Origin: Thainema sp.
Lineage (GTDB): Bacteria; Cyanobacteriota; Cyanobacteriia; Phormidesmidales; Phormidesmidaceae
DNA length: 16,207 nucleotides
Assembly (NCBI GenBank): GCA_052168235.1
Contig: JBQLZK010000104.1
Span: 1 to 16,207, forward strand
Direction: 5' to 3'
The position numbers and the translations under genes were made by a program. The stretch's first letter is position 1. Each line of letters begins with the position of its first letter. Below, in pieces: positions 1-16,207 of this stretch. The notes under the pieces were generated by a model. That model was not told the DNA's origin and did no database searches. It saw nothing but the letters and a program-made list of their open reading frames with translations.

Positions 1-20
1 CCTGAACAACCAGCTCAGCC

Positions 21-404: not shown

Positions 405-409
405 TCACA

Positions 410-853: not shown

Positions 854-1040
854 TGGCACATCCAGACGATTTTTCTTTAGTCAGTTCTAACCTAAAGATG
901 CCCAATCGATGCACGAAAAGCTTAAATCTCTTGATATGAACAGTGAGTTGTTGACTTAGTTCAAGATGCGAATGAATTACCATGATTTTGATAGTGCCGA
1001 GGCTTGAGCAATGCCAGCCAGCCAGAATACCCGCTTTCTA

Positions 1041-1067
1041 TCTATAATGGGAGCTTGTGTCTATAAT
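1041..1067 (+). promoter_or_regulatory. Candidate sigma70 -10 boxes for lysS
   Basis: Two perfect TATAAT hexamers (1043-1048 and 1062-1067), both in a TCTATAAT context, shortly before the ATG at 1090. No clear -35 box. Confidence 0.45.
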
Positions 1068-1089
1068 CTCTAGCCGTATCTACGTTCCT

Positions 1090-2622
1090 ATGTCTTCTAA
1101 CTTTGATGAGATCCGTGCTGCCCGTTTAGAAAAAGCTCAGGAGCTGCAAAAGCTGGGCTTGAACCCCTATGCCTACAAATGGGACATCACCCACAAGGCA
1201 GCCGATCTGCAAACCAAATTTGCAGACTTACCCAACGGCGAAGAAGAAGACTTTGAAGTTGCGATCGCAGGTCGCATCATGGCCCGACGTGTGTTTGGCA
1301 AGCTGGCCTTTTTCGGCATTCAAGACGAGACAGGCAGCATCCAGCTCTATCTGGATAAGAAGACGATTCAGGCGCAGATGGGTGAAAACCAGCCCAATGC
1401 CTTTAACAACTTGAAAAACCTGACCGATGTCGGCGACTTTATCGGCGTTAAGGGCACCATCAAGCGGACAGATAAAGGTGAACTGTCCATCAAAGTGAAT
1501 GAGTATGCCATCTTGACCAAGTCGCTGTTGCCGCTACCCGACAAATGGCACGGCCTAACCGATGTGGAAAAGCGCTATCGGCAGCGGTATGTGGACTTGA
1601 TTGTCAATCCTGAAGTGCGGGAAACGTTTCGGCGGCGGGCCAAGATTACGGCAGCGTTTCGGCGGCATCTGGAAGACTGCGGCTTCATTGAAATCGAAAC
1701 GCCTGTGCTGCAATCGGAAGCGGGCGGAGCCGATGCCCGTCCGTTTGTCACCTATCACAACACGCTGGAAATTGACCTCTATCTGCGAATCGCCACCGAA
1801 CTGCACCTGAAGCGGCTGATTGTCGGCGGCTTTGAGCGAGTGTTTGAGCTGGGTCGGATCTTCCGCAATGAGGGCATTTCCACCAAGCACAATCCCGAAT
1901 TTACCTCGATTGAGATCTATCAGGCCTATGCCGACTACAACGACATGATGGATCTGACTGAAGCGCTGATCACCAAAGCCGCGCAAGAGGTTTTGGGAAC
2001 GCTCAAAATACCCTACGGCGAAGAAATTATTGATCTCACTCCGCCTTGGCGACGGGTAACGATGCACGAGCTGGTGGAGGAAAAAACGGGGATTGACTTC
2101 AGCCAGTTTGATGATTTAGCGGCGGCTAAAGCGGTGGCCAAGAAAGCAGGCATTCGCGACATCGACGGCTGCGAGAGTATCGGTCATCTGCTGAATGAAG
2201 CCTTTGAGCAAAAAGCAGAAGAAACCTTAATTCAGCCTGTGTTTGTGATTGACTATCCGGTTGAAATATCGCCGTTGTCGAAGCCTCATCGTTCAAAGCC
2301 TGGTTTGGTAGAGCGATTTGAGCTATTCATGGTCGGTCGCGAAACGGCCAACAGCTTCTCTGAGTTGACCGATCCCATCGATCAGCGGCAGCGCCTAGAA
2401 CTCCAGGCCGCCCGTAAGGCCGCCGGAGATCTGGAAGCACAGGGCGTGGATGAGGACTTTCTGGCAGCACTAGAATATGGGATGCCGCCGACGGGAGGTT
2501 TAGGCATCGGCATTGACCGATTGGTGATGCTGCTAACGAATTCAGCCAGCATCCGCGATGTGATTGCCTTCCCGCTGTTGCGACCAGAAAAGGTGGAAGC
2601 AGCGATCGCGGAAGAAGGTTAA
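1090..2622 (+). CDS. lysS: Lysine--tRNA ligase (class II)
   Basis: OB-fold anticodon domain ([16 protein letters not shown]), [30 protein letters not shown], motif 2 FRNEGIS.KHNPEFT and motif 3 [18 protein letters not shown] at 1090 preferred over the GTG at 1057. Confidence 0.98.
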
Positions 2623-2646
2623 CGTAACCCTTATCTCCAAAACGCC

Positions 2647-2714
2647 TGTAGGGGCGGGTCTTGACGAAACATTTGGGTCAAATCTAGACGCGATTAGCTA
2701 GACCCGCCCCTACA
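2647..2714. repeat. GTAG-type REP-like inverted repeat between convergent lysS and the DUF2301 gene; possible bidirectional terminator
   Basis: Perfect 15-bp arms TGTAGGGGCGGGTCT (2647-2661) and AGACCCGCCCCTACA (2700-2714), with a 38-bp spacer. Confidence 0.8.
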
Positions 2715-2802
2715 ATTTGTACCGTCTCTTCTAGTCATCACTACTCAAAGGAGCAAGGGAGCAGAGGGGCAAAGTGTATAGCCAAGACCCAAAGTTTTGG
2801 TA

Positions 2803-3474
2803 CTACTGAGCTGCGAGTTCCTGTTCAGGAACTGCGATTTCACCCCGGAGATAAGCGAAAACGCTCTTATCGCCAATATCAGGTGGGATCTCCTGAATGA
2901 CTTTACGCGCTGCAAAAATGAGGAACAGCGTAGCCCATACGCCGAGCAGAATCGATTCCCATTGGATGGGCAAAAAGCTAAACATGTGCCCCAACAGTAC
3001 AAATGGAATCAGCGGCGTGAGAAAGCGTGTTTCCAGTCGGTTAAAGCAAAACGCTTCTTTGAAAGCGATTCCAGTCAGGGCAGCAAACGTAAAACCAATG
3101 CCCAAAATGGTCAGGGGATGTTGGTAAATGGTTAATGGTAACGGCGTGGGATAGGCCAGTGCGATCGCAACTGAAGCTATTCCACCTATTAGCCAAAACG
3201 CTTGCAGCGTCCGGTGCAGCGGTTTTAAATAAATATGAATGAATTTTAGACTTACGCCCATCGCGATCCAGAAAGTGGCGTAGAGGGCGGTGATAATGTT
3301 GAGCACAAAGGGCGTTAAGTCAGTACGCAAAGTCAGGAAAGTTGCGATCGCAAAACTGAGAGCGGCTACAGCTAACCCACCTCGATAAATACGCACTTCC
3401 TGTCGATCCTCAGCGGTGATAGTAAACTCACCAAACTGGCCTTGGTAAACCGGAGTATCTGGGGCAATATCCAT
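2803..3474 (-). CDS. DUF2301-family integral membrane protein
   Basis: VYQGQFGEFTIT..DR.EV..YR, IHIYLKPLH, GIAFKEAFCFNRLE and C-terminal PPDIGDKSVF, with about six hydrophobic segments. I recognise these as the cyanobacterial/plastid DUF2301 family. Confidence 0.88.
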   Translation of the reverse strand: MDIAPDTPVYQGQFGEFTITAEDRQEVRIYRGGLAVAALSFAIATFLTLRTDLTPFVLNIITALYATFWIAMGVSLKFIHIYLKPLHRTLQAFWLIGGIASVAIALAYPTPLPLTIYQHPLTILGIGFTFAALTGIAFKEAFCFNRLETRFLTPLIPFVLLGHMFSFLPIQWESILLGVWATLFLIFAARKVIQEIPPDIGDKSVFAYLRGEIAVPEQELAAQ

Positions 3475-3571
3475 GTCAATTCTTCTCTTTCTCTGATGCT
3501 GCTTTTTTATAATGCGGTTTTATGATGCAGTTACCATTTTGGGTGTTGTCCCTTCACAATAACCAAAATAA

Positions 3572-3615
3572 TAAGGGCAAACGCATTGGGCATCGCCACA
3601 ACACATTTACCCTTA
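3572..3615 (-). repeat. Strand-biased hairpin (REP-like) between hemL and the DUF2301 gene
   Basis: On the minus strand, TAAGGGTAAATGTGTTG pairs with CAATGCGTTTGCCCTTA using four G-U pairs. The plus strand would have A-C mismatches at those positions. Confidence 0.55.
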
Positions 3616-3646
3616 CACTAACGCTTCCACTCCGATTTCATACTCT

Positions 3647-3780
3647 GTAGGGTGTGCTATACGAAATCCGATCGTAAAAACCAGTTTTTATTTTGGTGAA
3701 AGTTGGACTGCGTCTGACTTTCACCAAAATGTTTAGATTTTTCTAGTTGGATTCGGTATTAGGCGAAGCCACAACGCACC
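3647..3780. repeat. Nested REP-like palindromic element downstream of hemL
   Basis: Outer degenerate arms GTAGGGTGTG...AACGCACC, an inner perfect 14-bp inverted repeat ATTTTGGTGAAAGT (3690-3703) / ACTTTCACCAAAAT (3717-3730), and a GGCGAAGCC mini-hairpin at 3762-3770. Confidence 0.7.
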
Positions 3781-3801
3781 GTTCTACCGAATTGCCAATC
3801 T

Positions 3802-5103
3802 TTACAGCGCCGACAGAACCTCACGTGCGGCCTCAATCGTGCGATCGATATCCTCATCCGTATGAGCTAGCGAGGTAAAGCCTGCCTCAAACTGGGACGG
3901 TGCCAGGTAGACTCCATGCTCCAGCATGCCGCGATGGAAGCGACCGAACTTTTGGAGATCAGACTTCTTGGCATCGTCGTAGTTGTGGACTGGCCCTTCG
4001 GTGAAAAACATGCCAAACATAGCGCTGATCGAGCCACCGCAAACCATATGGCCAGTTTCACGCGCAACGGCAAGTAGTCCATCGCTCAACTTTTTGGTAG
4101 TGGTTTCAAGTCGCTCATAGGTGCCTGGACGACGCAGAATTTCCAGGGTCTTGATACCAGCCGTCATCGCCAACGGATTGCCTGATAGCGTGCCTGCCTG
4201 GTACATGGGGCCAGCCGGAGCCACCATTTCCATGATGTCCTTGCGACCGCCGTATGCTCCAACGGGGAGACCACCACCGATGACTTTACCCAATGTGGTT
4301 AAGTCCGGCGTCACGTTAAATTTTTGCTGTGCGCCACCATAAGCAATCCGGAATCCGGTCATCACTTCATCGAAAACGAGCAGCGCGCCGTTTTCCTGAG
4401 TGATTTCGCGCAGACCTTCTAGGAAACCTGCATCCGGCACGATGAAACCTGAATTGCCCACAACGGGTTCGAGGATCAAACCAGCAATTTCGCCAGGATT
4501 GTCAGCAAAAAGCTTCTTGACCGCTTCTAAATCGTTGTAGGGTGCCGTCAAGGTGCTGCTGGTGACTGATTTCGGTACCCCCGGTGAGTCGGGCAGTCCC
4601 AGTGTGGCGACACCGGAGCCAGCCTTGACCAAGAACATATCCGCATGACCGTGATAGCAGCCTTCAAACTTGATGACTTTTTCCCGTCCTGTAAATGCCC
4701 GCATGAGACGCAGGACAGCCATGCAGGCTTCGGTGCCAGAGTTGACAAACCGTACCATTTCAACGCTAGGCACGGCATCAATCACCATTTCAGCTAGCAC
4801 GTTTTCGAGATAGCAGGGTGCGCCAAAGCTGGTGCCTTTTTCGAGGGCTTCATGTAGGGCTTGGATAACATCTTCATGGGCATGACCACAAATTGCTGGC
4901 CCCCACGTGCCAACGTAGTCGATGTATTGGTTGCCATCGACATCCCAAACATAGGAACCCTTCACCCGATCGAAGACAATGGGCTGACCGCCAACTGACT
5001 TGAATGCACGCACGGGCGAGCTGACCCCACCGGGCATCAGTTTTTGTGCGGCAGCAAAAATTTCTTCTGATTTTGTGGTTTTCAAAGGTGCTGTACTAAC
5101 CAA
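3802..5103 (-). CDS. hemL: Glutamate-1-semialdehyde 2,1-aminomutase
   Basis: [38 protein letters not shown] and the PLP lysine in [15 protein letters not shown] start with an AAGGAG RBS at 5110-5115. Confidence 0.98.
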
Positions 5104-5505
5104 CGTTTTCTCCTTAACAACCTCTGCCTGTGACTTTGCAAATCTTTGAGTCTGTGCAATCTCCTATTATCCTATCGATCAAAACTCTTTACACCTAGAA
5201 GCATCAAGTTTTCTAACAGCGATGATTGCGATAACTGCGATCGCAATATCTTTACCCATGTCTTTCTCATGTCTTTCCTCCGACGACGGATTTTGTTTCG
5301 GGAGAAAGATGTAGTACCTTGCAGTTCTCTGTACAGTTAAGACGGTAGGAAAAGCATTTGGTGCAAAGTCGATGCGTGAGCCGTCTATCTTCACATTAAT
5401 CAACGGCAGCCACACAAAATCGCCATGCCAGATCAGTTTTCATAGCCAAAACGAATAGCGTTCATAACAAGATGCATCGGTTATATCGGAGGGTAAAAAG
5501 CTTAA

Positions 5506-7089
5506 ATGGTTGAAGCAGCAGTTGGAACAGTTGATGAGTTCCAAGACGGGCACATGTATTCGGTGACAGTTGGAAAACGACCCGTGCTGTTATCGCGAAT
5601 TGACGGTCAGTTTTATGCCACTGGGGCACACTGCACACATTATGGTGCACCGCTGGCTAAAGGGGCAATTAAAGCTGATCGGATTGTTTGTCCTTGGCAT
5701 AATGCCTGCTTCAACGCCAAAACGGGGGTTCAACAAGAGCCACCCGGATGGGATCAGCTCGCTTCTTATAACGTCCAAATTGCGGATGGTCAGGTTGTTG
5801 TAATCGTGCCTGAAGATGATGACGGTTATCAACGCCCAGCGATGGTAGGTTACGATGCTGCCGCCGATAGTCGTACGTTTGTAGTACTCGGGGCTGGAGC
5901 TGCTGGTCGCACAGCGGTTGAAACGCTACGCCAAGAAGGATTTCAAGGCCGTATCATTCTGATCACACAGGAGAGCCGCCCACCCTACGATCGCACGTCT
6001 CTCAGCAAGAGCTATCTGCAAAGCGATGGATCGGACGAACCGCAACTCTTGCGATCGGAAGAATTCTATCAGCAGCACGATATTGAGGTGTGGTATGACA
6101 GCCCCGTGCAGCAGGTCAGCTCCGCTGCTCGCACGATCGTGTTTCAAGATGGTTCTACGCTGACCTATGATGCGCTGCTGTTGGCCACGGGCGGTCGTCC
6201 CAATCGGCTACCGATTGAAGGGGCTGACTTAAAAAACGTCTTTACTCTGCGGCAGGCCAAAGATGCGATCGCAATTTTAGAAGCCGCTCAAACGGCTCAG
6301 CGAGCGGTCGTAATTGGCTCTAGTTTTATCGGCATGGAAACGGCTGCCAGCTTAGCGCAACAGGGATTAGCCGTAACCGTCGTTTCTCCCGACAGCGTGC
6401 CGTTCGCCAAGATCTTAGGTGAGCAGGTGGGTTACGTCTTTCAGTCCCTCCATGAACAGCACGGCGTTGAATTTTGTCTGGGGCAGAAAGCAGCTCGCTT
6501 TGAAGGCGACCAACAGGTCAAGGCTGTGGTTTTGGAAAACGGCAGACGCATTCCGACTGAGCTGGTAATTGTCGGCATTGGGGTGCAGCCCGCAACCGAC
6601 ATGCTGCAAGATATCGATTTAGCCGATGACGGTAGTGTGGTCGTGAATGAGTATCTGCAAGCAGCTGATCAAGTTTATGCGGCGGGCGACATTACTCAGT
6701 ACCCCGATCCCTACAACAATCATCAACCCGTGCGGATTGAGCACTGGCGGTTAGCCATGCAGCACGGACGGATTGCTGCCCTCAATATGTTGGGACAGTC
6801 TGTGCCCTTTGCCGGATTGCCGTTTTTCTGGACAGGACAGTTTGATCTCAAATTGCGCTATGCCGGACATGCTGAAACTTGGGACGATTTGCTCATTCAG
6901 GGTGATTTAGATGAGCAGTCGTTTCTGGCCTTCTATGTCCAGCAGAATCAGATTAAAGCTGTAGCAGGCTGTGGTCGCGATCGCGATATTGCGGCCATTA
7001 CAGAATTGATGCGGCTTGGGCAAATGCCGAGTGCCGAAAAACTGCAGCCTGTTTTACCCGATTGGGCTGCGTATTTGGAGCGAGTTTAA
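5506..7089 (+). CDS. Rieske [2Fe-2S] ferredoxin fused to an FAD/NAD-dependent reductase (AIF3-like)
   Basis: Rieske ligands CTH and CPWH, FAD-binding GAGAAG, PPYDR..LSK, LLLATGG, NAD-binding GSSFIGME, YAAGD, RIEHW and PFFWT of the reductase C-terminal domain. Confidence 0.92.
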   Translation: MVEAAVGTVDEFQDGHMYSVTVGKRPVLLSRIDGQFYATGAHCTHYGAPLAKGAIKADRIVCPWHNACFNAKTGVQQEPPGWDQLASYNVQIADGQVVVIVPEDDDGYQRPAMVGYDAAADSRTFVVLGAGAAGRTAVETLRQEGFQGRIILITQESRPPYDRTSLSKSYLQSDGSDEPQLLRSEEFYQQHDIEVWYDSPVQQVSSAARTIVFQDGSTLTYDALLLATGGRPNRLPIEGADLKNVFTLRQAKDAIAILEAAQTAQRAVVIGSSFIGMETAASLAQQGLAVTVVSPDSVPFAKILGEQVGYVFQSLHEQHGVEFCLGQKAARFEGDQQVKAVVLENGRRIPTELVIVGIGVQPATDMLQDIDLADDGSVVVNEYLQAADQVYAAGDITQYPDPYNNHQPVRIEHWRLAMQHGRIAALNMLGQSVPFAGLPFFWTGQFDLKLRYAGHAETWDDLLIQGDLDEQSFLAFYVQQNQIKAVAGCGRDRDIAAITELMRLGQMPSAEKLQPVLPDWAAYLERV

Positions 7090-7207
7090 TCCAGATTCTT
7101 CCCTTCAGGTGACGACTTTTTGGCTTAGTCTCTCTACTGTCTTCAAATGGAGAGGCGAACCGATTTTCACCTCAGTTTTTTAGTGTTGTTAACAGGAGAC
7201 GCAAATT

Positions 7208-7402
7208 ATGATGACGTTTAAAGTGCCAACTATTACCTGTAAAGGTTGCGCAGAAACTATTACCGAGGCGTCGAAAGTGGTTGACTCTGACGCGAAAGTT
7301 GATGTTGATATCGAGAAGAAAGAAGTCAACATTGAGTCGAAAGCCAGCGAGGAATCGTTCCGCGAAGCCATTGTCGCTTCTGGTCACACAGTCGAGTCCT
7401 AG
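7208..7402 (+). CDS. Heavy-metal-associated domain protein (CopZ/Atx1-like copper chaperone)
   Basis: 64 aa with a TCKGC metal-binding motif, a ferredoxin-like pattern and C-terminal AI..SGHTV. AGGAG RBS at 7194-7198. Confidence 0.9.
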   Translation: MMTFKVPTITCKGCAETITEASKVVDSDAKVDVDIEKKEVNIESKASEESFREAIVASGHTVES

Positions 7403-7428
7403 GCATCACATACCTCGCATAACGATGC

Positions 7429-7508
7429 GGTATTGCTAGTTGCAGGGATGAATAGGGGTGTAGGAGGTGTGCCTCCACATCGCTTTCATGCCCGAATCAA
7501 GCAACCCC
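7429..7508. repeat. Degenerate MITE-like element with an internal REP-like hairpin
   Basis: Imperfect arms of about 24 bp, GGTATTGCTAGTTGCAGGGATGAA and TTCATGCCCGAATCAAGCAACCCC, enclosing GTAGGAGG-TGTG-CCTCCAC. Confidence 0.5.
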
Positions 7509-7521
7509 CACGATAGCTGGT

Positions 7522-7556
7522 AACAAGCGCGCTGCTTGGGCGGCGTGCTTGTTTGG
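7522..7556 (+). terminator. Possible terminator hairpin after the CopZ-like gene
   Basis: AACAAGCGCGCTGC-TTGG-GCGGCGTGCTTGTT forms a 14-bp stem with two G-U pairs on the plus strand. The U tract is short. Confidence 0.45.
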
Positions 7557-7596
7557 TGCTTGAACTTATACCCAATCTGTGTATAAGAGCCCAACG

Positions 7597-7641
7597 TATG
7601 TTTTGTAAAAAGCTGGCCTGGCCAGCTTTTTACAAAACATA
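7597..7641. repeat. Perfect 45-bp palindrome downstream of nfi
   Basis: TATGTTTTGTAAAAAGCTGGCC-T-GGCCAGCTTTTTACAAAACATA: 22-bp arms with a 1-nt spacer. The GC core is flanked by A5/T5, as in a bidirectional intrinsic terminator. Confidence 0.9.
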
Positions 7642-7669
7642 TGTCATTGGGTTTTAACCGGGCTTTGTA

Positions 7670-8446
7670 CTAAAACAGGTTCATCTGCTCATCATTCTTA
7701 TCTTTATCATTCTTATCTTTATCTTTTCCGTTCGCTGGTGACGAGGATAATGGATTAGTTGCTGACGGTGCCTTTTTCTTCATGCCACGCTGCGAGGCTA
7801 ACTTATCTGCCTGTCGCGTGGTTTCCGGTAGACGGTACTTGGGCGTGCAGGCCATGACATAATCCAGCGCTGTCGGTAAACTGATGCGATGACCAACCGA
7901 AATATAGAGCGGCTTGGTATTTGTGCGCGATCGCAACACCGCTCCAATCGTTTCTTCCTTATCTTTAAGCGGCACCCAATTGCCTTTTTCCAGTGGCACG
8001 TCTGGATGACGACCAATCAGCCTCGATTTTGCCACCCCAATCGTCGGTACATCCACTAATAACCCCAAATGGCTAGCAATCCCCAAGCGACGCGGATGGG
8101 CTATACCCTGACCATCGCACAAAATTAAATCTGGTTCTGTCTTTAACTGCGCCAGTGCCGCTACCACTGCTGGAACTTCTCGAAACGAAAGAAAGCCTGG
8201 AATGTAGGGAAACGTTGTCGGCACATGTGCGATCGCATGTTCAACCAGCTCTAAATCCGGATAGCTCAGTACGACGACTGCGGCACGGGTAATAGTCCCG
8301 TTCTCTTCAAATCCCGCGTCTACTCCCGCCACGTACTGTACAGAACCAAGCTGGTCGGTTGTGATCACCTGCGATCGCAAATCCTGCTGAATCTTGACGG
8401 CAACTTCAGCGGTTTCAGGCCAGTCTGTCAGTGCCGGAATTTTCAT
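7670..8446 (-). CDS. nfi: Endonuclease V (deoxyinosine 3' endonuclease) with a C-terminal low-complexity tail
   Basis: VAGVD, FPYIPGFLSFRE, LILCDGQGIAHPRRLGIASHLG, PTIGVAKS, KPLYISVGH and YRLPETTR.AD. Confidence 0.96.
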   Translation of the reverse strand: MKIPALTDWPETAEVAVKIQQDLRSQVITTDQLGSVQYVAGVDAGFEENGTITRAAVVVLSYPDLELVEHAIAHVPTTFPYIPGFLSFREVPAVVAALAQLKTEPDLILCDGQGIAHPRRLGIASHLGLLVDVPTIGVAKSRLIGRHPDVPLEKGNWVPLKDKEETIGAVLRSRTNTKPLYISVGHRISLPTALDYVMACTPKYRLPETTRQADKLASQRGMKKKAPSATNPLSSSPANGKDKDKNDKDKNDEQMNLF

Positions 8447-8489
8447 GAGCGGTATCCATTTTGCTTTTGATCAACTCAGCATGAAAGTG

Positions 8490-8520
8490 AGGCGAGAGGC
8501 GAGAGGAGTAAGGAGTAAGG
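8490..8520. repeat. Heptamer tandem repeats (STRR-like)
   Basis: AGGCGAG x2 followed by AGGAGTA x2 in the LOG-nfi spacer. Heptameric intergenic repeats are common in filamentous cyanobacteria. Confidence 0.6.
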
Positions 8521-8535
8521 AAAGAAAAACAGTCC

Positions 8536-9597
8536 TCACTTATGCTCTGGATGAGTCGTTTCGGGGCGAGAGTCACTAAACCGATTGAGTCCCATAATGA
8601 ACTGATGCAGGCGGCCATAGTCGCGCTGATTAAAGTACATCACCAAGCGCGGCATCTCTTCCGTTTCGTCGCCGACTTCCTGAGGAAGGGCTTTACTCTT
8701 TTCGATTTTGCCTTTGACCAAAATGTCGCTGTACTCTTCATTTAGCTGATGAATGGCCTCATCCGATAGCTCGCAGTTGAGCCGCATCACAAACCGCTCG
8801 CCCACATAGCGACTAGAGTGATAGACCCGATAAAAATCTGCGATCGCTTGGCAGGCTTCATCTAGCGAGTCGGTAATCACGTACAGGCTCGGATCATCAA
8901 CGCTGATTAATCCTTTGTCGAGTAGATGCTGTCGAATGTAAACATCCCAGCTCTTCCAGTAGTCTCCCCCCGGTTGATCAACCATCACTAGCGGCACGAG
9001 CCCCGATTTGCCTGTTTGAATCAGAGTTAGGCACTCGAATGCTTCGTCTTGTGTGCCAAAACCGCCGGGGAACAGAGCCAGCGCATCACTTTCTCGCAGG
9101 AAGAACAGCTTGCGCGTGAAAAAGTACTTGAAGAACAGCAGCTTTTGGTCGCCGTGGATAAACGGGTTGGCTCCCTGCTCAAACGGTAATTGAATATTGA
9201 GGCCAAAGGAATTGCCCGCACCTGCGCCCATGTTACCCGCCTGCATGATGCCGCCGCCCGCGCCCGTCATCACCATGAAGCCCTGCTTCGTCACCTGGCG
9301 GGCAAACTCCAGCGCCATCTGATATTCAGGATGATCTGCTGGAGTACGGGCTGAGCCAAAAATGGTAATCTTACGCACATGACGATAGGGATAGAACATC
9401 TCAAACGCCTGCGCCATGTCTTGTAGCGAGTAATTTAAGATTTTCCAATCCAGGCGATCCGCTTCACTCTCTGCCAGCCGAACTAAAGTGAGGAGTGCCT
9501 GCTGAATGAACTCTCGGTGTTTCATCGTCGGCAGGTCTCGTATCAGTTGACTGACTTCTGCCTCAAGTGCTGTGAGTGAATTGGGAGACGAAACCAT
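8536..9597 (-). CDS. LOG-family (nucleotide 5'-monophosphate phosphoribohydrolase-like) protein with N- and C-terminal extensions
   Basis: ITIFGSART, MTGAGGGIMQAGN, GLNIQLPFEQ..N, FKYFFTRK and the signature PGGFGTQDE. Confidence 0.92.
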   Translation of the reverse strand: MVSSPNSLTALEAEVSQLIRDLPTMKHREFIQQALLTLVRLAESEADRLDWKILNYSLQDMAQAFEMFYPYRHVRKITIFGSARTPADHPEYQMALEFARQVTKQGFMVMTGAGGGIMQAGNMGAGAGNSFGLNIQLPFEQGANPFIHGDQKLLFFKYFFTRKLFFLRESDALALFPGGFGTQDEAFECLTLIQTGKSGLVPLVMVDQPGGDYWKSWDVYIRQHLLDKGLISVDDPSLYVITDSLDEACQAIADFYRVYHSSRYVGERFVMRLNCELSDEAIHQLNEEYSDILVKGKIEKSKALPQEVGDETEEMPRLVMYFNQRDYGRLHQFIMGLNRFSDSRPETTHPEHK

Positions 9598-9670
9598 AGG
9601 ACCTCGTGAGTGCGGATCTTTATTCTATCGGGGTTTGCTACCTTCTTAGTTGGATTTCACCCATACAAAT

Positions 9671-9696
9671 GCCCTAGATGAAATTTCACCTAGGGC
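9671..9696. other. Palindrome between trxA and the LOG gene (hairpin or operator)
   Basis: GCCCTAG-A-TGAAATTTCA-C-CTAGGGC. The single mismatch becomes a G-U pair on the minus (mRNA) strand. Confidence 0.5.
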
Positions 9697-9826
9697 GCTG
9701 ATTTAAGTAAATGCTATTGAGTGAACAGGCAACCTCAATCTAGCCAAAGTTTAGCTAAACTGCGATCTCACCATCTCAATCGATGCTGCTTAATTTAGCT
9801 CTGAGTATAGCGATGTGGAATGTGCG

Positions 9827-10150
9827 TTAAAGATACTTCTCTAGCGTATTAGCCAAAGTGGTTTTGGGCACAGCTCCAACGACCATATCGACGCGCTGAC
9901 CACCCTTAAACACCATCAGCGTGGGAATGCTGCGGATGCCGTACTGGCTGGCTACGCTGGGGTTTTCGTCGGTGTTGACTTTGACGACTTTAACCTTGCC
10001 GTCGTACTGTTCTGAAATTTCATCAACGACGGGAGCTACCATTCGGCATGGGCCACACCAGGGTGCCCAGAAATCGACTAAAACGGGAAGCTCGCTTTCA
10101 AGTACTTCTTGTTTAAATGTGGAATCTGTAACTTGTGCGGCTGCTGACAT
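9827..10150 (-). CDS. trxA: Thioredoxin (m-type)
   Basis: [18 protein letters not shown] active site, YGIRSIPT and VVGAVPK; 107 aa. Confidence 0.98.
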
Positions 10151-10297
10151 GCCTAGTAATCCTTGCCTACGTAATCTTGTTCAGAATTCTATCATAGCCA
10201 GAGCTGGCTATTTCGCATCGCAAACTTTCTCTTCGTTTAAGAAAAAGCAGTTTGGATTTCAACTAATCTTGCCTGAAACGGGTCGAGTACTAAACCT

Positions 10298-11173
10298 TCA
10301 AAAGGCGTACTTTTCCAAAACCTGTGCGATCGCAGCATTAAATGCCTGTGGTTCCACTAAAAATGGCCAGTGATTGCCGGGGACAGTGACAAATTGCAAC
10401 TGGGTTAGATAATGACGAAACGAATTAATTTGAAAATTGGAGCGATTCAACCCCTGCTCCGGCTGGATAAAGGTGCAGGGCACATCTAGCGTCTCTGTTA
10501 ACCCATCCACTAGCAGCATATCCATAAATACTTCGTCGCGCGCGGGTTGGACAAATTTGCTGCCCCATTGGCCATTTGCTTTTTCTTCCATGCCTCGCTG
10601 AAACACTTCCGCCTGAAAATCACTCCAGCCTCGATACTGCTTTAACTGCTGCGCCACCTGCTTCGCTTGTTCATAGCTATCGAATGGCCCCATCACTTTC
10701 AAAAAGGGCAGAACCCGATACAGCAGTGGAAACGTTAGTTTGAAAGCCTTGGGTAACTGCTTGACGAAGAATGGATCAACCAGCGTTAGGCTTTGTACCC
10801 GCTCAGGCTGCTGCTTGGCCCAGATCAGCGCCACTTTGGCTGACCAAGAATGAGCAATTACATGGGCTGATCTGCAACCCATCTCACGCATCAGCGCATT
10901 CAAATCGGCCACAATGTCCTGACAGCGATATCCAGTCGTGGGCTTGCTGCTGTCGCCATGTCCGCGTAGATCAGGAGCAACACAGCGATAGCGATCGCAC
11001 AATTCTCCAGCTAACTCTCGCCACACGAAACCATGATCGGCCAAGCCATGCAGCAACAGTAGCGGTATTCCGTCGGGATTTCCCCAGTCCCAGTAGGATA
11101 GCTGCACGTCCGATGTACAGTGCATGACTTTGCGGCAATCCAATTCTGGCGTGAGGTGTGGCGTGTGTGTCAT
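10298..11173 (-). CDS. Alpha/beta fold hydrolase
   Basis: LLLLHGL oxyanion motif, APDLRGHGDS, nucleophile elbow AHSWSA, and catalytic His in GNHW..LVEP..FN. Confidence 0.92.
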   Translation of the reverse strand: MTHTPHLTPELDCRKVMHCTSDVQLSYWDWGNPDGIPLLLLHGLADHGFVWRELAGELCDRYRCVAPDLRGHGDSSKPTTGYRCQDIVADLNALMREMGCRSAHVIAHSWSAKVALIWAKQQPERVQSLTLVDPFFVKQLPKAFKLTFPLLYRVLPFLKVMGPFDSYEQAKQVAQQLKQYRGWSDFQAEVFQRGMEEKANGQWGSKFVQPARDEVFMDMLLVDGLTETLDVPCTFIQPEQGLNRSNFQINSFRHYLTQLQFVTVPGNHWPFLVEPQAFNAAIAQVLEKYAF

Positions 11174-11229
11174 GGTGTAATGTCGGTAATTTGAAGCTGA
11201 AGATGCTTAAAACGAATGTGCGAGTGCTG

Positions 11230-11255
11230 TGTCAAATTAGTTTGTCAAATTAGTT
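11230..11255. repeat. 13-bp direct tandem repeat upstream of the hydrolase
   Basis: TGTCAAATTAGTT x2, exact. Confidence 0.8.
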
Positions 11256-11396
11256 TTGATGGTTGATATGCCACGTTTTGCGCTCTAAATTTTGCCATAA
11301 AAGCTGGCAAAGGCGAGTGCCGTCGCATTACAACAGCTACTCGCCTCTTTCTGCTCTCGATTCGAAGGTGTAAATGTCTCAGTTAAATTGAAAGAC

Positions 11397-11462
11397 ACCA
11401 AAAATCACTAATTTGACCCCGATTTAGCTTTCTGATACGGCGACAGATTGGTGATTTTTGGT
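11397..11462. repeat. Inverted repeat just downstream of cp12 (possible terminator or stabiliser)
   Basis: Perfect 12-bp arms ACCAAAAATCAC and GTGATTTTTGGT, extendable inward by 7 bp with two G-U pairs on the plus strand. Confidence 0.65.
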
Positions 11463-11488
11463 TTGGCTATAAAATAATAAATTTAGAT

Positions 11489-11713
11489 TCAGTCTTCGTA
11501 AATGCGGCATTCGTCCGCATCAGGATTTTCGTCGCAGTATTGATCCAGCGAGGTTTTACCAGGCTTCTTCTCTTTACGGTGAGAGGCTTCTGCCTGCAAC
11601 TCTTCGACTGCATCCCAAGCTGCCGCACAGTTGCTAGAATCGCTGCCTTCAGTGTCACAAACTTCACGAGCTTGCTTTAGTTCCTGGTTAATCTGTTCTT
11701 GAATATCAGCCAT
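11489..11713 (-). CDS. cp12: Calvin cycle protein CP12 (canonical form, both Cys pairs)
   Basis: N-terminal Cys pair (AREVC...NC), core AWDAVEEL and C-terminal YCDENPDADECRIYED. Confidence 0.97.
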   Translation of the reverse strand: MADIQEQINQELKQAREVCDTEGSDSSNCAAAWDAVEELQAEASHRKEKKPGKTSLDQYCDENPDADECRIYED

Positions 11714-11845
11714 AACTTTTTATGTCGCTATGCAATGAGTCAATATACTTACCGCATTGTATCGTGTTGTTTGACACCCCTTAGTAAAAAGCAGCTCAAA
11801 ATATTTCAAACGGCAGATCTGCGATCGCAACTTTCCAGCCGTCGG

Positions 11846-12427
11846 TCAGCGTGACATCACAACCTGCTTCAGCCGCTCTGGATTCGTTTCGAGATAACCG
11901 ATAGCAACCTTTGGATCTCTCCATCCCATGACCTTCATTAACTCCTGCAGCGACGCGCCATTGTTGGCGATCGCATTGGCAAACGAGCGCCGGAATGAGT
12001 GGGTAGAGATGCCCACATGATTTAACCGAGCTTTATCGACGGCGCGGCGGAGGGCATCATCGGCAGCATCAAAACTTAGGTGTGAGCCATCTTCTAGACC
12101 TGGGAACAGATACCCGTAGAACGGCTGCTGATATTCACAGAGCAGAGAGCGCAAATTCGAATGGACGTAGACTTCTCGTGTCTCTCGCTCTCCATTGGGC
12201 CGTGCTTTACGGGTTGATGCCGGAAACGTGATGGACTCGCGTGGCCATTTATCCAGTGTGTAAACATGCTCGACTCGCAGCTGAACGATAGCCCCCAATC
12301 TCTCACCCGTCCAATAAGCGATATCGAAAATCATGCGGTGCGACGGTGATCGGAATGAGCGCCGTAAATGTTGCCACTGCCGATCGCTCAAAATTGCAGC
12401 TTTCCCCGACCGATTATTTTTTGCCAA
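11846..12427 (-). CDS. Tyrosine recombinase/integrase (catalytic domain only)
   Basis: Complete catalytic set: R43 (TGER), K74, H143-x-x-R146 (THSFRR), W169 (MGW) and Y178, plus YLFPG. At 193 aa it lacks N-terminal core- and arm-binding domains. TTG start. Confidence 0.93.
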   Translation of the reverse strand: MAKNNRSGKAAILSDRQWQHLRRSFRSPSHRMIFDIAYWTGERLGAIVQLRVEHVYTLDKWPRESITFPASTRKARPNGERETREVYVHSNLRSLLCEYQQPFYGYLFPGLEDGSHLSFDAADDALRRAVDKARLNHVGISTHSFRRSFANAIANNGASLQELMKVMGWRDPKVAIGYLETNPERLKQVVMSR

Positions 12428-12446
12428 TTCTCGCTCTAAAATCCTT

Positions 12447-12479
12447 CCAAATTATTCGTTGAATCCTCGAATAACTTGG
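12447..12479. promoter_or_regulatory. Inverted repeat 20 bp upstream of the recombinase; candidate recombinase binding or crossover site, or operator
   Basis: CCAAATTATTCG-ttgaatcct-CGAATAACTTGG: 12-bp arms with one mismatch and an asymmetric 9-bp spacer. Confidence 0.55.
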
Positions 12480-12646
12480 CGGTTTTCCTCCGCTAACTAC
12501 TGACAAATATAGCTCTAAGCCTTATCAGATAAGCATCGTGGAATTGCTGAAGATCTACAAATTCTACAGAGAAGTTGGTGATTGCCGCGCTTCAAATCAG
12601 TTTTTACAGTTGATTTATTCCTAACAGTAAACCGAGGAAAAAAGCA

Positions 12647-12964
12647 ATGCCACTATCAATTACTCAACGGTTCGGAGCAAGCGCCACATTAACTGCCGGG
12701 GTTTTGAGCGTCACTATCACCGAGCTGGCAAATCTCGATGACCCCCAAGCATCAGCCGATCAAATTCTGGCGGCCATGATTCTGCATAGCAAAGCTGTTC
12801 AGCCCACAAATGCTCTTGACGATGCAACAGTTGGCGTTACCATCGACGATCCATTCAAGAGTTTTGCTCGCACCGATACCCAAATTCAGCATAGCTACAG
12901 CGTCAATTTGTATGAAGTAGCCAGTGGAGCTGGAGCCCTTGACCCGGATGACGTGGTGAGCTAA
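12647..12964 (+). CDS. Hypothetical protein (105 aa), first gene of the element operon; candidate structural protein
   Basis: GAGG RBS at 12634-12637. Its stop overlaps the next start (TAATG). Ala/Thr/Asp/Ser-rich with a beta-helix-beta pattern; no family recognised. Confidence 0.8.
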   Translation: MPLSITQRFGASATLTAGVLSVTITELANLDDPQASADQILAAMILHSKAVQPTNALDDATVGVTIDDPFKSFARTDTQIQHSYSVNLYEVASGAGALDPDDVVS

Positions 12965-13596
12965 TGGCTGAGCAAGAGACGATCGTCTATTTTCGCTACC
13001 CAGGCGATACCACCTGGCAACAGGTCAAGGTGGCTGGTTCATCAGCCACCGCTGAAACCGAATCCGTCAGCATTCCCGCTCCATGTGCTCAGAGCTATGA
13101 ACTGACGTATGTGGTGAACTGGCGCAACATTGTCGGCGCTGGTTGCCTCAATCGACCGCGCGAATACAAAGTAACCAGGACTGGCCCCTTCATTGCACCG
13201 ATTGATCGCTTCGTTGGGAACCAGTGGCTCGTCCAGCTTGACCGCTATGACACAGAGGGGAATTTCATTCAGTCTGACACCCTAAACGGCGCGTGCTTCG
13301 GTGCATCCAGTCACGCGCCCGATAGCGAGCTAATTTCCTGCATTCCCCTCGGCACACCGTCAAACGACTGCGGCCCTACCGAGTGCAAATTCATCGTCCG
13401 GAATGCCGAGGGTGCGATCGTCTACTCAGAGCAAAACGAAGTTTGTCCTGAGTGGAAAATCTCGTCCGGCTGCCCCCCAGACACGATCGAGTGTGGCGAT
13501 TGCTGTCTGGACTGTGGCGATTATCTCGGTGATGTGCGATCGCTCATTTCTCAGGTTAAACAGCTCACAGGTTCACCCGTTGCTTATCAGGGTTAA
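12964..13596 (+). CDS. Cysteine-rich hypothetical protein (210 aa)
   Basis: 12 Cys, including a C-x8-C-x6-C-x2-CC-x2-C cluster (aa 161-184) followed by a heptad helix. Translationally coupled to the upstream ORF. Confidence 0.82.
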   Translation: MAEQETIVYFRYPGDTTWQQVKVAGSSATAETESVSIPAPCAQSYELTYVVNWRNIVGAGCLNRPREYKVTRTGPFIAPIDRFVGNQWLVQLDRYDTEGNFIQSDTLNGACFGASSHAPDSELISCIPLGTPSNDCGPTECKFIVRNAEGAIVYSEQNEVCPEWKISSGCPPDTIECGDCCLDCGDYLGDVRSLISQVKQLTGSPVAYQG

Positions 13597-13599
13597 ATC

Positions 13600-15762
13600 A
13601 TGTCGGAATGCGATGAATTGAAGCAAGAAATTGCGGCGCTGAGGGCTGAGATTGCCAAGCTACAACCGTTTACCGAGAACAAGTTTAAGGACTGGCTCGG
13701 TAAATTTGGTCTACCTGTTTTGGGTGGAACTTTTGTCATCAACAACTTCAAAGAGTTGGGAGATGCACAATCAATCTCAACCTATGTAACAACTCGTCAC
13801 CGAGCCGCGATGCAGCGAGCTGAGAAAGCTATTGAGGATGCTTTATCTGCGTCGAATAAGGCCAGCGCTGCCCAAAGTTTAGCCAATACAGCTAAAAGCA
13901 AAGCTGAAGATGTAGCAGAAGGTTTAACAAGGCTGGAGGGTTTTGTTAATAGGGTTATAGGAGAGATTAGAGGGCTGATTGATGATGCTGTAGAGAAAGC
14001 GGGTAAAGCCCTCTCGGAGGCATTAGGCGCGACTAAATTAGGTCGTCAGGCTTTGAATCTTGCTGAAGAAATCGCACCTATTGCTAAACGAGCGCTCAAT
14101 GTGACGCTGAAACTATTGGGGCAAATTCTCAACATCTTGGATCTCATTGCTGGGCTCGCAACCTTGGCAGAGGTGCAAGGACTCCGTAAACGGATGAAAG
14201 CTTTAGAGGATGGTCAACGAATCCAAGACCGCGACCTATCCCGCATTCTGAGCATCATCACCTCGATTAAATTCAGGGTTGATGAGCTGGAAGGTGGTTT
14301 GAAATATGCCTACAGACGAATCTCTGAAGCGAATAGGAAAGCGGTTGAGGCGATCAAGGATTCGGCTAGAGCGCTAACGGAGGCAGGACAAGCCTTTTCA
14401 ACCGCTCGCGATGCTCAAAGGGATGCTGAGAGTGCGCAGAATACAGCAACTCGCGCCGCGCGTGATGCTGCTGTGGCTGTGGCAACTGCTAACGCGGCTC
14501 AGGCGGCGATCGGTGCTGTTGCAGGCGTAGCGAATCGAGCATTAGGTCGTGCTGGAACGGCTGAAGGGAAAGCGGATAGAGCATTAAATCTGGCCCGTCG
14601 TGCTGGCAGAGGTGAGAGAGGGCCGCGCGGTCTACCCGGTCGTCCCGGTCGTGATGGGAAAGATGGCGCACCTGGTAGAACTGGCGCACCTGGCAGAACT
14701 GGCGCACCTGGCAGAACTGGCGCACCTGGCAGAGCTGGCGCACCTGGTAGAGCTGGCGCACCTGGCAGAGCTGGCGCAAAAGGTGACCGAGGGCCAGCAG
14801 GCGCACCGGGCAGAGATGGTAGACCTGGACGTGATGGGAAGGATGGAGAAATGGACGCAGCCGACAAAGCTCTACTCAGGAAGATCGATCGCACCACTAC
14901 CGACACCAATCGCCTGAGTAAGGTGATGTCCCCAGTGGTGCTGCTCACTCGCAAGGTGGCAGTCGAGACTCAGAAAAAACTGAACTTGCTCGATACATTT
15001 CTCCGGAAAGCGTGGCAGTTCACACGTATGGATAAAGTAGTGTCAGCCCTAACGCTAGTCGTCACGTTGCATAACGCCTCAATGCTCGCGCGTGACCTGG
15101 GAGAGACATTAGGTGAACTCACCTCTCAAGTTTTGAACGTCATCGGTATCCGTGATGAGAACGGGAACGCCCTCGACGTTAACGGTCTGATCGGCAGCTC
15201 GTTTGAAAACTTACTCATTTCCATCCTGGGTCAGGAAGTCTACAGCGGAGTCCGGCAGAACTGGCTCAAGGCTAATCGAGTGCTGCAAGCTGGCTCGCAG
15301 GTCATCTGGACTGTTCGCAGCATCATGGACAGCACAGCCGAAGTCGAGGAATGGATCGCTGAGAACTTGGGCAAAATCGGCAACGCCCTTAAAAAATACG
15401 GTGTAGTCGGTCGTGCTGCCTATCCCTACATGTCCGAACGGATGAGGGCACAGGAAAGATGGCGCAACAAACTTGGCCGCGTCACGGACGGTCTAGAGTC
15501 GCTGGAGGATACCGCCAGTTCACTCTATGCCGTCACCAGTACAGTTAGGGATGCTCAGGAAGAAATTGGTGAACTTGGCAACAACGCAGGGCAATTCTTG
15601 GGCATGGTCACAGGCGAGATTGATCCGGCCACAGGTCAGCCATACCTCCCACCAGAGCCACAACAACCCGTCGATAATGCTGAAGTCGCTGCCGCCGCTG
15701 CCGCTGCCGCCGCCGCAAGCCAGTCGCCAGAGATCAGCACAGCCGACATGAATCGGGGTTAA
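13600..15762 (+). CDS. Coiled-coil/collagen-like fibre protein (720 aa)
   Basis: Ala-rich coiled-coil tracts, 27 uninterrupted Gly-X-Y triplets (nt 14611-14853), a helical C-terminal domain of about 300 aa and a Pro/Ala-rich tail. It starts 3 nt after the previous stop. Confidence 0.9.
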   Translation: MSECDELKQEIAALRAEIAKLQPFTENKFKDWLGKFGLPVLGGTFVINNFKELGDAQSISTYVTTRHRAAMQRAEKAIEDALSASNKASAAQSLANTAKSKAEDVAEGLTRLEGFVNRVIGEIRGLIDDAVEKAGKALSEALGATKLGRQALNLAEEIAPIAKRALNVTLKLLGQILNILDLIAGLATLAEVQGLRKRMKALEDGQRIQDRDLSRILSIITSIKFRVDELEGGLKYAYRRISEANRKAVEAIKDSARALTEAGQAFSTARDAQRDAESAQNTATRAARDAAVAVATANAAQAAIGAVAGVANRALGRAGTAEGKADRALNLARRAGRGERGPRGLPGRPGRDGKDGAPGRTGAPGRTGAPGRTGAPGRAGAPGRAGAPGRAGAKGDRGPAGAPGRDGRPGRDGKDGEMDAADKALLRKIDRTTTDTNRLSKVMSPVVLLTRKVAVETQKKLNLLDTFLRKAWQFTRMDKVVSALTLVVTLHNASMLARDLGETLGELTSQVLNVIGIRDENGNALDVNGLIGSSFENLLISILGQEVYSGVRQNWLKANRVLQAGSQVIWTVRSIMDSTAEVEEWIAENLGKIGNALKKYGVVGRAAYPYMSERMRAQERWRNKLGRVTDGLESLEDTASSLYAVTSTVRDAQEEIGELGNNAGQFLGMVTGEIDPATGQPYLPPEPQQPVDNAEVAAAAAAAAAASQSPEISTADMNRG
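14665..14772 (+). repeat. Coding tandem repeat, 18 bp x 6 (GAPGRT/GAPGRA)
   Basis: GGCGCACCTGGYAGARCT repeated six times, plus a partial GGCGCA. Confidence 0.95.
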
Positions 15763-15776
15763 GGGAGGAAACGCCA

Positions 15777-16175
15777 GTGCTACCGGATAATTTCAGCCCT
15801 TCTGAACATCTACAGGACACCATCAAAAAGATTTATAACCGTGCTGTCCGTGACTATTTCAAAGATCTGGGTGGTGATGATTGGTCACCCAATATCGACA
15901 CATCACGCGATTCGTTGCGCACAGCGGTGCAGCATTTTGACGGCGATACTTTTTTCATGACCATTGCAAAAATGCTGGCCTTTGACCTTGCTCTTGGTCA
16001 GCGTATGCAGGGTGTACCGGGATTTGAGGAAGGCGGCAAGGGCATCTACCGCAAACAGAAGCCCCAAATCCTGCTCTATTTTCAAGAGGATAACGAGGAC
16101 ATTGAACCGGGATACGCGCCCGTTACAGCCCGAATTTCATTTCGGCTGATGAACTACTGGTTAGTCAAGAATTAA
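15777..16175 (+). pseudogene. Hypothetical protein of the element operon, interrupted by an IS630-family insertion
   Basis: GGGAGG RBS at 15763-15768 and a GTG start. After ...ISFRLMNY the last codons (WLVKN*) are read from the IS end that begins at 16157. Confidence 0.7.
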
Positions 16176-16207
16176 TTGACGGGTAAAGTCGTTTCAACTT
16201 AATGCGT
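16157..16207 (-). mobile_element. Right end of an IS630-family insertion sequence (transposase C-terminus plus terminal repeat)
   Basis: Minus strand 16206-16165 reads RIKLKRLYPSINS*, which I recognise as the C-terminus of a common IS630 transposase group (...FTT.DARIKLKRLYP). It is followed by CTAACCAG and then a TA dinucleotide (16155-16156), the IS630 target. Confidence 0.85.

Follow-up and report, generated by a model that had tools for sequence, protein, structure and literature searches.

The stretch of DNA analysed here (the window, 16,207 bp) is the whole of contig C104 in the 7.5-Mb, 205-contig assembly of a Thainema sp. genome (G000), and the question it raises is what kind of element occupies its right end, where a short tyrosine recombinase gene (int) on the minus strand faces away from four tightly packed plus-strand genes (orfA-D, spaced by -1, 3 and 14 nt). 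A sequence-only reading had seen here a candidate novel provirus with an unrecognised, structural-looking operon, and the minimal recombinase and the four co-oriented genes have all been recovered with the same coordinates and spacings. Comparison with a second genome of the same genus (G401) and with loci fetched from other genomes (L-numbers in the following) has led to a best reading in which a decayed element, inserted between cp12 and a FIST-domain gene, contributes its left 4.4 kb to the window and belongs to an undescribed family of virus-like mobile elements.

The Insertion and Its Intact Sister Copy

That the element is integrated and mobile, as had been proposed, is supported by empty sites, which have been found for the G000 copy and the G401 copy alike. 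In G401, cp12 directly abuts the FIST-domain gene, and homology to this site stops at position 11774 of C104 and at position 159096 of another G000 contig, C7. The extent first given for the element, 11846..16156, has to be corrected at its left end, which lies at 11775; homology to the G401 copy of the element begins at window position 11814. This intact copy comprises 10,734 bp (G401:C38:19282-30015) at a different locus, for which the G000 contig C128 provides the matching empty site, and insertion has been precise at two different loci in two genomes of the same genus. The genes of the intact copy follow the order int (193 aa), A, B, C (718 aa), D (273 aa), E (183 aa), F, G, H and I, and then come p151 and p120 in reversed orientation, five small open reading frames (ORFs) and a 401-aa transposase of the IS110 family. 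A glutamine riboswitch has been detected in the host flank of the G401 copy (L031 9125-9221, on G401:C38; 54.6 bits, gathering score 35).

The copy in the window has been broken by an insertion sequence (IS), which cuts orfD at codon 126, and the last six codons and the stop codon of the gene as called are IS sequence. Full-length relatives of orfD have 269-275 aa (~273), the window protein aligns only to residues 1-126, and the tblastn match stops at nt 16154; of the four genes that had been read here, orfD is not whole and is interrupted at the TA in 16155-16156. The contig-terminal 51 nt are common to five other contig ends, always after TA, and continue on the G000 contig C117 as an IS of ~1.2 kb that encodes DDE_3 (9.7e-22) and HTH_32 (5e-14) domains, which place it in the IS630 family; consistent with this family, TA has been found before the left end at 6/6 junctions and after the right end at 7 junctions. 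With at least six left-end and seven right-end junction contigs in G000, this IS630 causes assembly breaks, including those at both ends of the gap in the element. As C7 terminates in the right end of the same IS630, the simplest layout would join C104:11775-16156 (4,382 bp), the IS630 and C7:161780-159097 (2,684 bp). C117 has been rejected as the continuation of orfD: there the IS comes first, followed by a stop and unrelated genes, and synteny favours C7. From the right end of the IS630 to the point where similarity to G401 sets in, there are 285 bp, with a 90-aa ORF (L030 11493-11765, equal to G000:C7:161492-161764) that is without similarity to the G401 gene at that place.

For the C-terminal half of D, for E-I and for p120 and p151 of G401, no tblastn match has been found anywhere in G000, and ~3.9 kb have therefore been lost. 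The window copy is decayed and dead, and can no longer make the product of the operon. Packaging and replication genes had been expected beyond the window; what has been found instead is the IS630, followed by a remnant ending in the IS110-family transposase, and the intact sister copy is likewise without a recognisable packaging ATPase, Rep or capsid gene. Neither an att-like direct repeat nor a convincing inverted repeat surrounds the window element, and in G401 only pairs of 14-23 nt containing the palindrome GCGATCGC have been seen, which we have judged to be background.

Spread of the Core among Filamentous Cyanobacteria

The core of the element, i.e., the short tyrosine recombinase, a palindromic site and operon A-H, is conserved across filamentous cyanobacteria, on chromosomes as well as on plasmids. 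The gene order is the same in 8/8 loci from other genomes fetched via a match to orfB and recurs in 70 loci anchored on D among species representatives, a recurrence beyond chance that bears out the conservation for which the earlier reading had advised to look. Near D in these 70 loci, the C-terminal domain of C adjoins in 63, G is found in 45, A in 27, E in 24 and a short recombinase upstream on the opposite strand in 24, counts that derive from a handful of tblastn queries and are undercounts for the fast-evolving genes. Matches to orfB occur in 10 of the 401 genomes of a phylum sample, 8 of them in one family of 45, and a profile search with protein B has yielded 384 representatives at 50% identity (E<=1e-3). 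In a database clustered at 90%, 128 homologues of D and 119 of E have been found, all annotated as hypothetical and belonging to Nostocales and a few other filamentous groups. In literature searches on cyanobacterial prophages and on IS110 cargo, no description of the element has been found, although the supplements of one preprint (10.64898/2026.08.14.744561) may list cyanobacterial loci.

The relatives keep phage-like company, which includes CI-type repressors, PrimPol, DnaB or VapE genes, amidase lysins, a membrane/coiled-coil protein and a lipoprotein. In a complete-looking unit of ~16 kb (L014), an HTH_3 repressor and a PrimPol-DUF3987 helicase face each other, accompanied by a 365-aa integrase and an Arc-like gene, and the module carries four extra genes, with an HNH endonuclease at its end. 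L015 holds a DnaB-like helicase, L016 a VapE-like gene and a tRNA-Lys, and L077 a CI-like HTH gene facing a small-ORF operon that ends in an IS110 transposase. L017 occupies 9.3 kb with cellular genes on either side and adds a lysin of the Amidase_3/glucosaminidase kind as well as a phage-tail-repeat (PTR) protein, and an Amidase_3 lysin beside the recombinase has also been seen in L093, L106, L119, L133, L134 and L147. The module has also been found on two circular plasmids from a single strain, pHT582-1 (37 kb) with the full recombinase and A-H core and pHT582-2 (15.6 kb) together with ParAB and an integrase. On the 15.6-kb plasmid with the module (L033, CP019638.1), the region 7349-14821 holds a 1664-aa ORF with a weak MACPF match (2e-6) and a PIN/DUF2281 pair.

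Taking into account sizes of 9-16 kb, the absence of capsid and terminase genes, the HNH endonuclease at the module end of L014 and, in some copies, an integrase, a repressor and PrimPol-DUF3987 or VapE, which together form a typical PICI/P4-like gene set, the element might be a phage satellite that makes some particle parts (fibre, adaptor, host-range proteins) and the means of lysis itself and borrows capsids and packaging from a helper cyanophage. We consider this improbable, as neither a small terminase nor a capsid-size redirecting gene nor a cos/pac feature has been recognised, no helper has been identified, and the minimal copies are without any replication gene. In addition, the part that is conserved is not the backbone, the genes of which are interchangeable or missing, but an eight-gene operon of unrecognised proteins with a collagen fibre and lysis genes, which is lacking in known satellites. 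The set of int, repressor and primase has been seen in L014 and L016 and not in G401 or L017.

The Operon Proteins

The features of the element within the window are compiled in Table 1. Neither orfA nor orfB nor orfD has found a match in Pfam, PHROG, NCBIfam or PADLOC, and the operon thus remains as unrecognised as it had first appeared. The orfA family has 14 members in the fetched loci (iterated hidden Markov model search). In orfB the N-terminal part is hypervariable, and a C-terminal motif, CPP-x4-C-G-x-CC-x2-C, is invariant and followed by a helix; the invariant positions of the family alignment are C170, P171, P172, C177, G178, C180, C181 and C184. The G-x-y repeats of orfC extend over residues 338-418 (nt 14611-14853; PF01391, 2e-14), an alanine-zipper match and PF11839 have also been obtained for this protein, and its C-terminal third is 30-38% identical in distant loci. 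Hydrophobic N-termini have not been seen in the window proteins. For the genes that only the intact copy retains, H has an N-terminal membrane helix and a coiled coil, I has a lipobox with a lipoprotein signal, and a profile comparison of D with E has shown the two to be unrelated. A PADLOC scan of 13 proteins has identified no defence component and only two weak coiled-coil matches on orfC.

Table 1. Coordinates of the element and its parts in the window, numbered from the first letter of the stretch.
Feature	Position	Strand	Description
Left end of element	11775-11845		host DNA (cp12 side) ends at 11774; inserted DNA starts at 11775
Short tyrosine recombinase (int)	11846-12427	-	193 aa, catalytic domain only; PF00589 7e-14, phrog_216 1e-25
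Site I palindrome	12446-12480		two 13-nt arms (11/13 complementary), 9-nt spacer, 19 nt upstream of int start
Site II palindrome	12553-12582 (about)		imperfect, half-sites like those of site I, 4-nt spacer, before orfA
orfA	12647-12964	+	105 aa, first gene of the conserved operon
orfB	12964-13596	+	210 aa, 12 Cys
orfC	13600-15762	+	720 aa: coiled coil, collagen repeats, conserved helical C-terminal domain
orfD as called	15777-16175	+	132 aa; genuine N-terminal 126 codons in 15777-16154
TA target and start of IS	16155-16207		TA in 16155-16156, then the first 51 nt of an IS630-family IS; contig ends

Between the two sister copies, the proteins have diverged to very different degrees. With its G401 counterpart, int is 97% identical and orfD(1-127) 93%, orfA 68%, orfC 66% (718 aa there) and orfB only 41%; divergence in B and in the front of C greatly exceeds that in int or D, and 12988-14681 gives no blastn match at all. 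Such a pattern is typical of host-recognition proteins.

The nature of orfC leads to the question of whether an ordinary tailed prophage is at hand, reduced to its tail module after loss of the head genes, with orfC as tape measure or fibre. PHROG tail-fibre families do match orfC (best 1.7e-17), L017 contributes its PTR tail-repeat protein, and a language-model atlas has led from D to tail-terminator families and to E217_gp29 (0.86-0.87, lead level only). We regard this explanation as very improbable. The PHROG matches are confined to the collagen and coil segments of orfC, the atlas leads have not been upheld by fold search and have been discarded, and the model of D matches no solved neck or terminator protein. 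The intact copy is bounded at both ends by empty sites and is without any head or tail hallmark, and in L017 the same compact core is flanked by cellular genes. In a test for tailed-phage genes, ORFs apart from orfC have remained below 340 aa, and in L014 only C has the length that a portal or large terminase would need. The absence of tailed-phage head and tail genes noted from the window extends to the intact relatives, in which none follow.

An IS110-Family Transposase as the Proposed Vehicle

The transposase at the far end of the element, on contig C7 and outside the window, matches NF051857 with 324 bits against a cut-off of 180 (1.3e-96) and PF01548 (3e-11), and is single-copy in G000. 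At the two junction pairs (G000 and G401), there is no duplication and no direct repeat beyond 1-2 nt. Between the stop codon of the transposase and the end of the element, a terminator, a GC-rich box and a hairpin have been observed, of which the hairpin spans the junction: its 5' arm lies in the element, and its 3' arm is formed by the first 10-11 nt of host DNA, which are also present in the empty site, in G000 as in G401. The arms differ between the two copies and track the target, and two further copies (G710) have the same design with other arms. A perfect 10+10 hairpin is located 54-72 nt past the stop codon in all four of the closest transposase copies, again with differing arm sequences; of 33 distinct downstream regions, 6 have such a hairpin, as compared to 0-2 of 33 over 20 shuffles. 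Among 15 loci picked only by similarity of the transposase, 12 hold other genes of the element. An Rfam scan of the far end has given nothing relevant in either copy.

These features resemble those of known IS110/IS1111 elements. In the seekRNA work (PMC11187229), a downstream non-coding region with short target-matching segments, natural reprogramming and movement of cargo are described for IS1111/IS110. A 2026 preprint (10.64898/2026.08.14.744561) reports that natural IS110 loci can reach ~100 kb and contain DNA resembling that of plasmids and phages; the text of it that was searched makes no mention of cyanobacteria. The present element shares with the large cargo-bearing members an IS110-family transposase at one end, a downstream non-coding segment that is complementary to the target flank and varies with it, precise insertion without duplication and, as far as those sources describe it, a plasmid- or phage-like cargo. 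It differs in that the cargo is a conserved 9-kb unit with a tyrosine recombinase of its own, which is also found on other vehicles, and in that only one target-matching arm has been recognised (10-11 nt, right flank), the guide RNA and a circular form being putative. In the G000/G401 lineage, the whole unit would be inserted by the IS110-type transposase, with a 3' non-coding RNA pairing with the target flank. In L072, L077 and L078, the block of recombinase and operon is inverted relative to the block of repressor, small ORFs and IS110 transposase, the G000/G401 arrangement being taken as reference.

The Short Recombinase and Its Palindromic Sites

The Pfam match of int (PF00589) covers residues 29-184 with 52.3 bits against a cut-off of 27.1, and only 28 residues precede the catalytic domain. 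All nine homologues have 190-200 aa; R43, K74, H143 and R146 are invariant, Y178 is present in 8/9, and position 169 is W or H, residues which we take to be the catalytic set R-K-H-R-(H/W)-Y. The scores lie far below the curated cut-offs of the NCBIfam models for XerC, XerD, XerA and the integron integrase (best 46 bits vs 220). Features of a lambda Int-like system have not been found either, as the protein is without an N-terminal arm- or core-binding region and the junctions share no repeat beyond 1-2 nt. Integration linked to a tRNA has been rejected as well, since the window has no tRNA; a tRNA-Lys adjacent to the module has been seen only in L016. Junctions without a shared core, together with the IS110-type guide hairpin at the far end, make it probable that the window copy was not integrated by the short recombinase.

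A candidate substrate is located just upstream of the gene. A palindrome of the site I type (at least 11/13 complementary in 13-nt arms, with a centre of 9-11 nt) has been found upstream of 29 of 36 recombinases of the family, as compared to 0-5 of 36 in shuffled sequences; in 25 loci it begins 10-31 nt from the start codon, and its arm sequences vary from locus to locus yet stay complementary. The gap between int and orfA is near-constant at ~200-230 bp, a block of the site II type is conserved at the same position in 12 aligned loci with a spacer of 2-4 nt, and a TATAAT-like box lies between the two palindromes in several loci. At 12509-12525 of the window, between sites I and II, there is also a perfect 13-nt palindrome, CTTATC-A-GATAAG, which has not been kept in the G401 copy. 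It is on site I that the recombinase would act, either by resolving circular multimers of the element or by switching or regulating the operon. In Cre/loxP, XerS/difSL, TnpI/IRS and FimB/FimE, the recombinase gene is likewise immediately preceded by an inverted-repeat site in which a spacer separates the arms, and int has the size of FimB. The present system differs from these in the missing core-binding domain, the 9-nt spacer and the second site with a 2-4-nt spacer, and no recombination product has been observed.

The same arrangement would suit a phase-variable surface operon of the chromosome without mobility of its own, in which A-D are switched on and off through inversion, by the recombinase, of a promoter segment bounded by sites I and II: the protein is a catalytic domain only, and the constant gap holds two palindromes with common half-sites and, in several loci, the promoter-like box. 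Such an explanation is hardly credible, however, in view of the insertion polymorphism between sister genomes, the copies on plasmids, the patchy and multi-copy distribution and the absence of signal peptides. All 12 aligned int-orfA intergenic regions are colinear, none showing an inverted state, and the 2-4-nt spacer of site II is too short for strand exchange as it is known for tyrosine recombinases.

What the Operon May Build

Regarding the product of operon A-H, we favour a virus-like particle module, tentatively and with slightly less than an even chance. The absence of signal peptides, the Cys-rich B, the collagen/coiled-coil protein C, the lysin, the membrane protein and the lipoprotein fit assembly in the cytoplasm and release by lysis, and have placed this assignment first; it ranks there by context, not by any recognised virion protein. 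The products of A-H, with a hypervariable B and an E that looks like an abundant protein, would form a particle or a fibre, the release of which would make use of the amidase, the membrane protein H and the lipoprotein, and A-H as a whole would serve a small temperate virus-like element as its module for morphogenesis and lysis. In the language-model atlas, the nearest neighbours of E are three all- or mostly-viral clusters of hypothetical proteins (0.95, 0.93, 0.93).

Several results weigh against this assignment and against the wider reading of the window. In Pfam and PHROG scans covering the window, the intact G401 copy, L014, L015, L016 and L017, no family match to a capsid, portal, terminase, tail tube, sheath or packaging ATPase has been obtained for the module genes of any copy. 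Among frames above 50 aa, neither four elements nor the pHT582-1 module has shown a canonical Walker A motif, by a strict pattern that also misses ParA-type motifs. The profiles of D and E have 0 matches among PDB sequences at E<=10, D has no match in 50,697 INPHARED phage records, and scans of IMG/VR (with one protein and with a 14-sequence alignment) have given no confirmed relative. The minimal copies (G401, L017) have no recognisable replication gene, and none of 11 whole contigs carrying D shows a terminal overlap. The IS110 transposase is found within 10 kb in only 1 of the 70 D-anchored loci, and this vehicle is therefore lineage-specific. Finally, the join C104-IS630-C7 is drawn from synteny and contig ends and has not been read through.

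Structure prediction and fold search, which the sequence-only reading had recommended for all four proteins, have covered D and, in addition, E. The AlphaFold models of D (pLDDT 84.0, pTM 0.63) and E (pLDDT 87.9, pTM 0.71) are both confident and alpha/beta, and by secondary structure neither is a jelly roll or HK97-like; a match to a capsid protein has not been obtained, A, B, F and G being outside the modelled set. Foldseek has returned nothing from the PDB (best E 0.33 for D and 0.19 for E), and for D nothing convincing from BFVD, the best match being an unnamed protein (E 0.015, TM 0.34/0.23). The provirus originally proposed remains plausible, whereas the identity of a virion has not been borne out: the models of D and E match nothing. 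No relative has been found in INPHARED or IMG/VR.

Small temperate viruses without tails, such as corticovirus PM2-like proviruses and the Thermus IN93 type, possess jelly-roll capsid proteins and a packaging ATPase of the FtsK/HerA type. The present elements resemble them in size (10-17 kb), in being integrated or plasmid-like, and in combining an integrase and genes for lysis with numerous small structural genes that have no match in databases. They differ in that neither a jelly-roll capsid protein (D and E modelled; A, B, F and G not among the models) nor an FtsK/HerA ATPase has been found, the module genes showing no AAA/FtsK match. For an Inoviridae-like virus, a Zot/pI-type ATPase and an HUH Rep have been looked for, and there has been no match in Pfam or PHROG and no Walker A. 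A bolder proposal, that the short recombinase and the A-H core form the module for morphogenesis and lysis in a new family of small non-tailed temperate viruses of filamentous cyanobacteria, with particle proteins of folds absent from all solved and predicted viral structures, without a packaging ATPase and with interchangeable vehicles (ParAB plasmids, PrimPol/DnaB replicons or, in the present lineage, a bridge/seekRNA-guided IS110 transposase serving as viral integrase), is in our view doubtful.

Rather unlikely, yet the most probable of the alternatives, is a core that is non-viral cargo, i.e., an accessory operon for an extracellular fibre, an adhesive structure or a bacteriocin-like killing particle, carried by plasmids, IS110 loci and integrative elements, with the recombinase and its palindromes as resolvase or expression switch. 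Genes for lysis also accompany bacteriocins released by lysis, such as tailocins. The core has been found with many unrelated vehicles and sometimes with none that is recognisable, and no capsid or packaging gene has been found. The size of the recombinase, which is that of FimB-type invertases, and the two palindromic sites between recombinase and operon would suit such a switch. Large natural IS110 loci have been reported to gather plasmid and phage DNA (10.64898/2026.08.14.744561). On the other hand, there is no match to a tail tube, sheath or baseplate and none to a defence or toxin family, the intergenic regions are colinear in all 12 aligned loci, and units of the L014 type are laid out like a temperate phage, with repressor, replication gene and integrase, and offer no other candidate for the late module. 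The virus-like particle module is retained as the preferred assignment.

Genomic Context of the Window

The remainder of the window (1-11713) has an ordinary gene content, with genes for a class II aminoacyl-tRNA synthetase, a DUF2301 protein, an aminotransferase, a Rieske/FAD reductase, endonuclease V, a LOG-like protein, a thioredoxin, a hydrolase and CP12. Its first 55 nt overlap about ten other contig ends of G000 (52-55 nt, 98-100% identical), so that a further repeat adjoins the window on its left. The proteins of int and orfA-D are each single-copy in G000, except for weaker paralogues of the recombinase. On contig C117 (L001), the region 1345-10229 holds four unknown co-oriented ORFs after the IS630, then tniQ/tniB/tnsB (Tn7-like, minus strand, 4339-7171) and a split Tn3-family transposase (7279-10229).

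G000 has at least nine CRISPR arrays of several repeat types on contigs C9, C24, C33, C55 and C150, in which about 183 spacers can be read; on C9, the sequence of one array region is given as N. A search of CRISPR spacers had been advised as well, and has come out negative within G000: the 183 spacers from its nine readable arrays match none of the fetched loci, nor anything else in G000 save repeats inside one array. No listed sequencing run holds more than 0.10 of the words of the stretch, and no RNA run is listed among the holders.

Significance

The family, the lox-like site and the IS110 vehicle are the interesting parts of this locus. The lox-like palindrome and a recombinase reduced to its catalytic domain form a compact recombination module that is of interest in itself. 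The two copies in G000 and G401 provide a clean natural case of a unit of ~11 kb at two sites, with an IS110-type guide arm that changes with the target, and make natural IS110 reprogramming directly testable, whatever the operon does. Filamentous cyanobacteria such as Nostoc, Anabaena, Dolichospermum, Nodularia and Calothrix are important in ecology and in toxic blooms, whose known temperate viruses are few. The element family is common in the genomes of these cyanobacteria, where its genes are annotated only as hypothetical, and no relative has been found in the virus collections searched. If the operon does build particles, it would represent a new virus lineage with new structural folds and a route for gene flow among bloom-formers.

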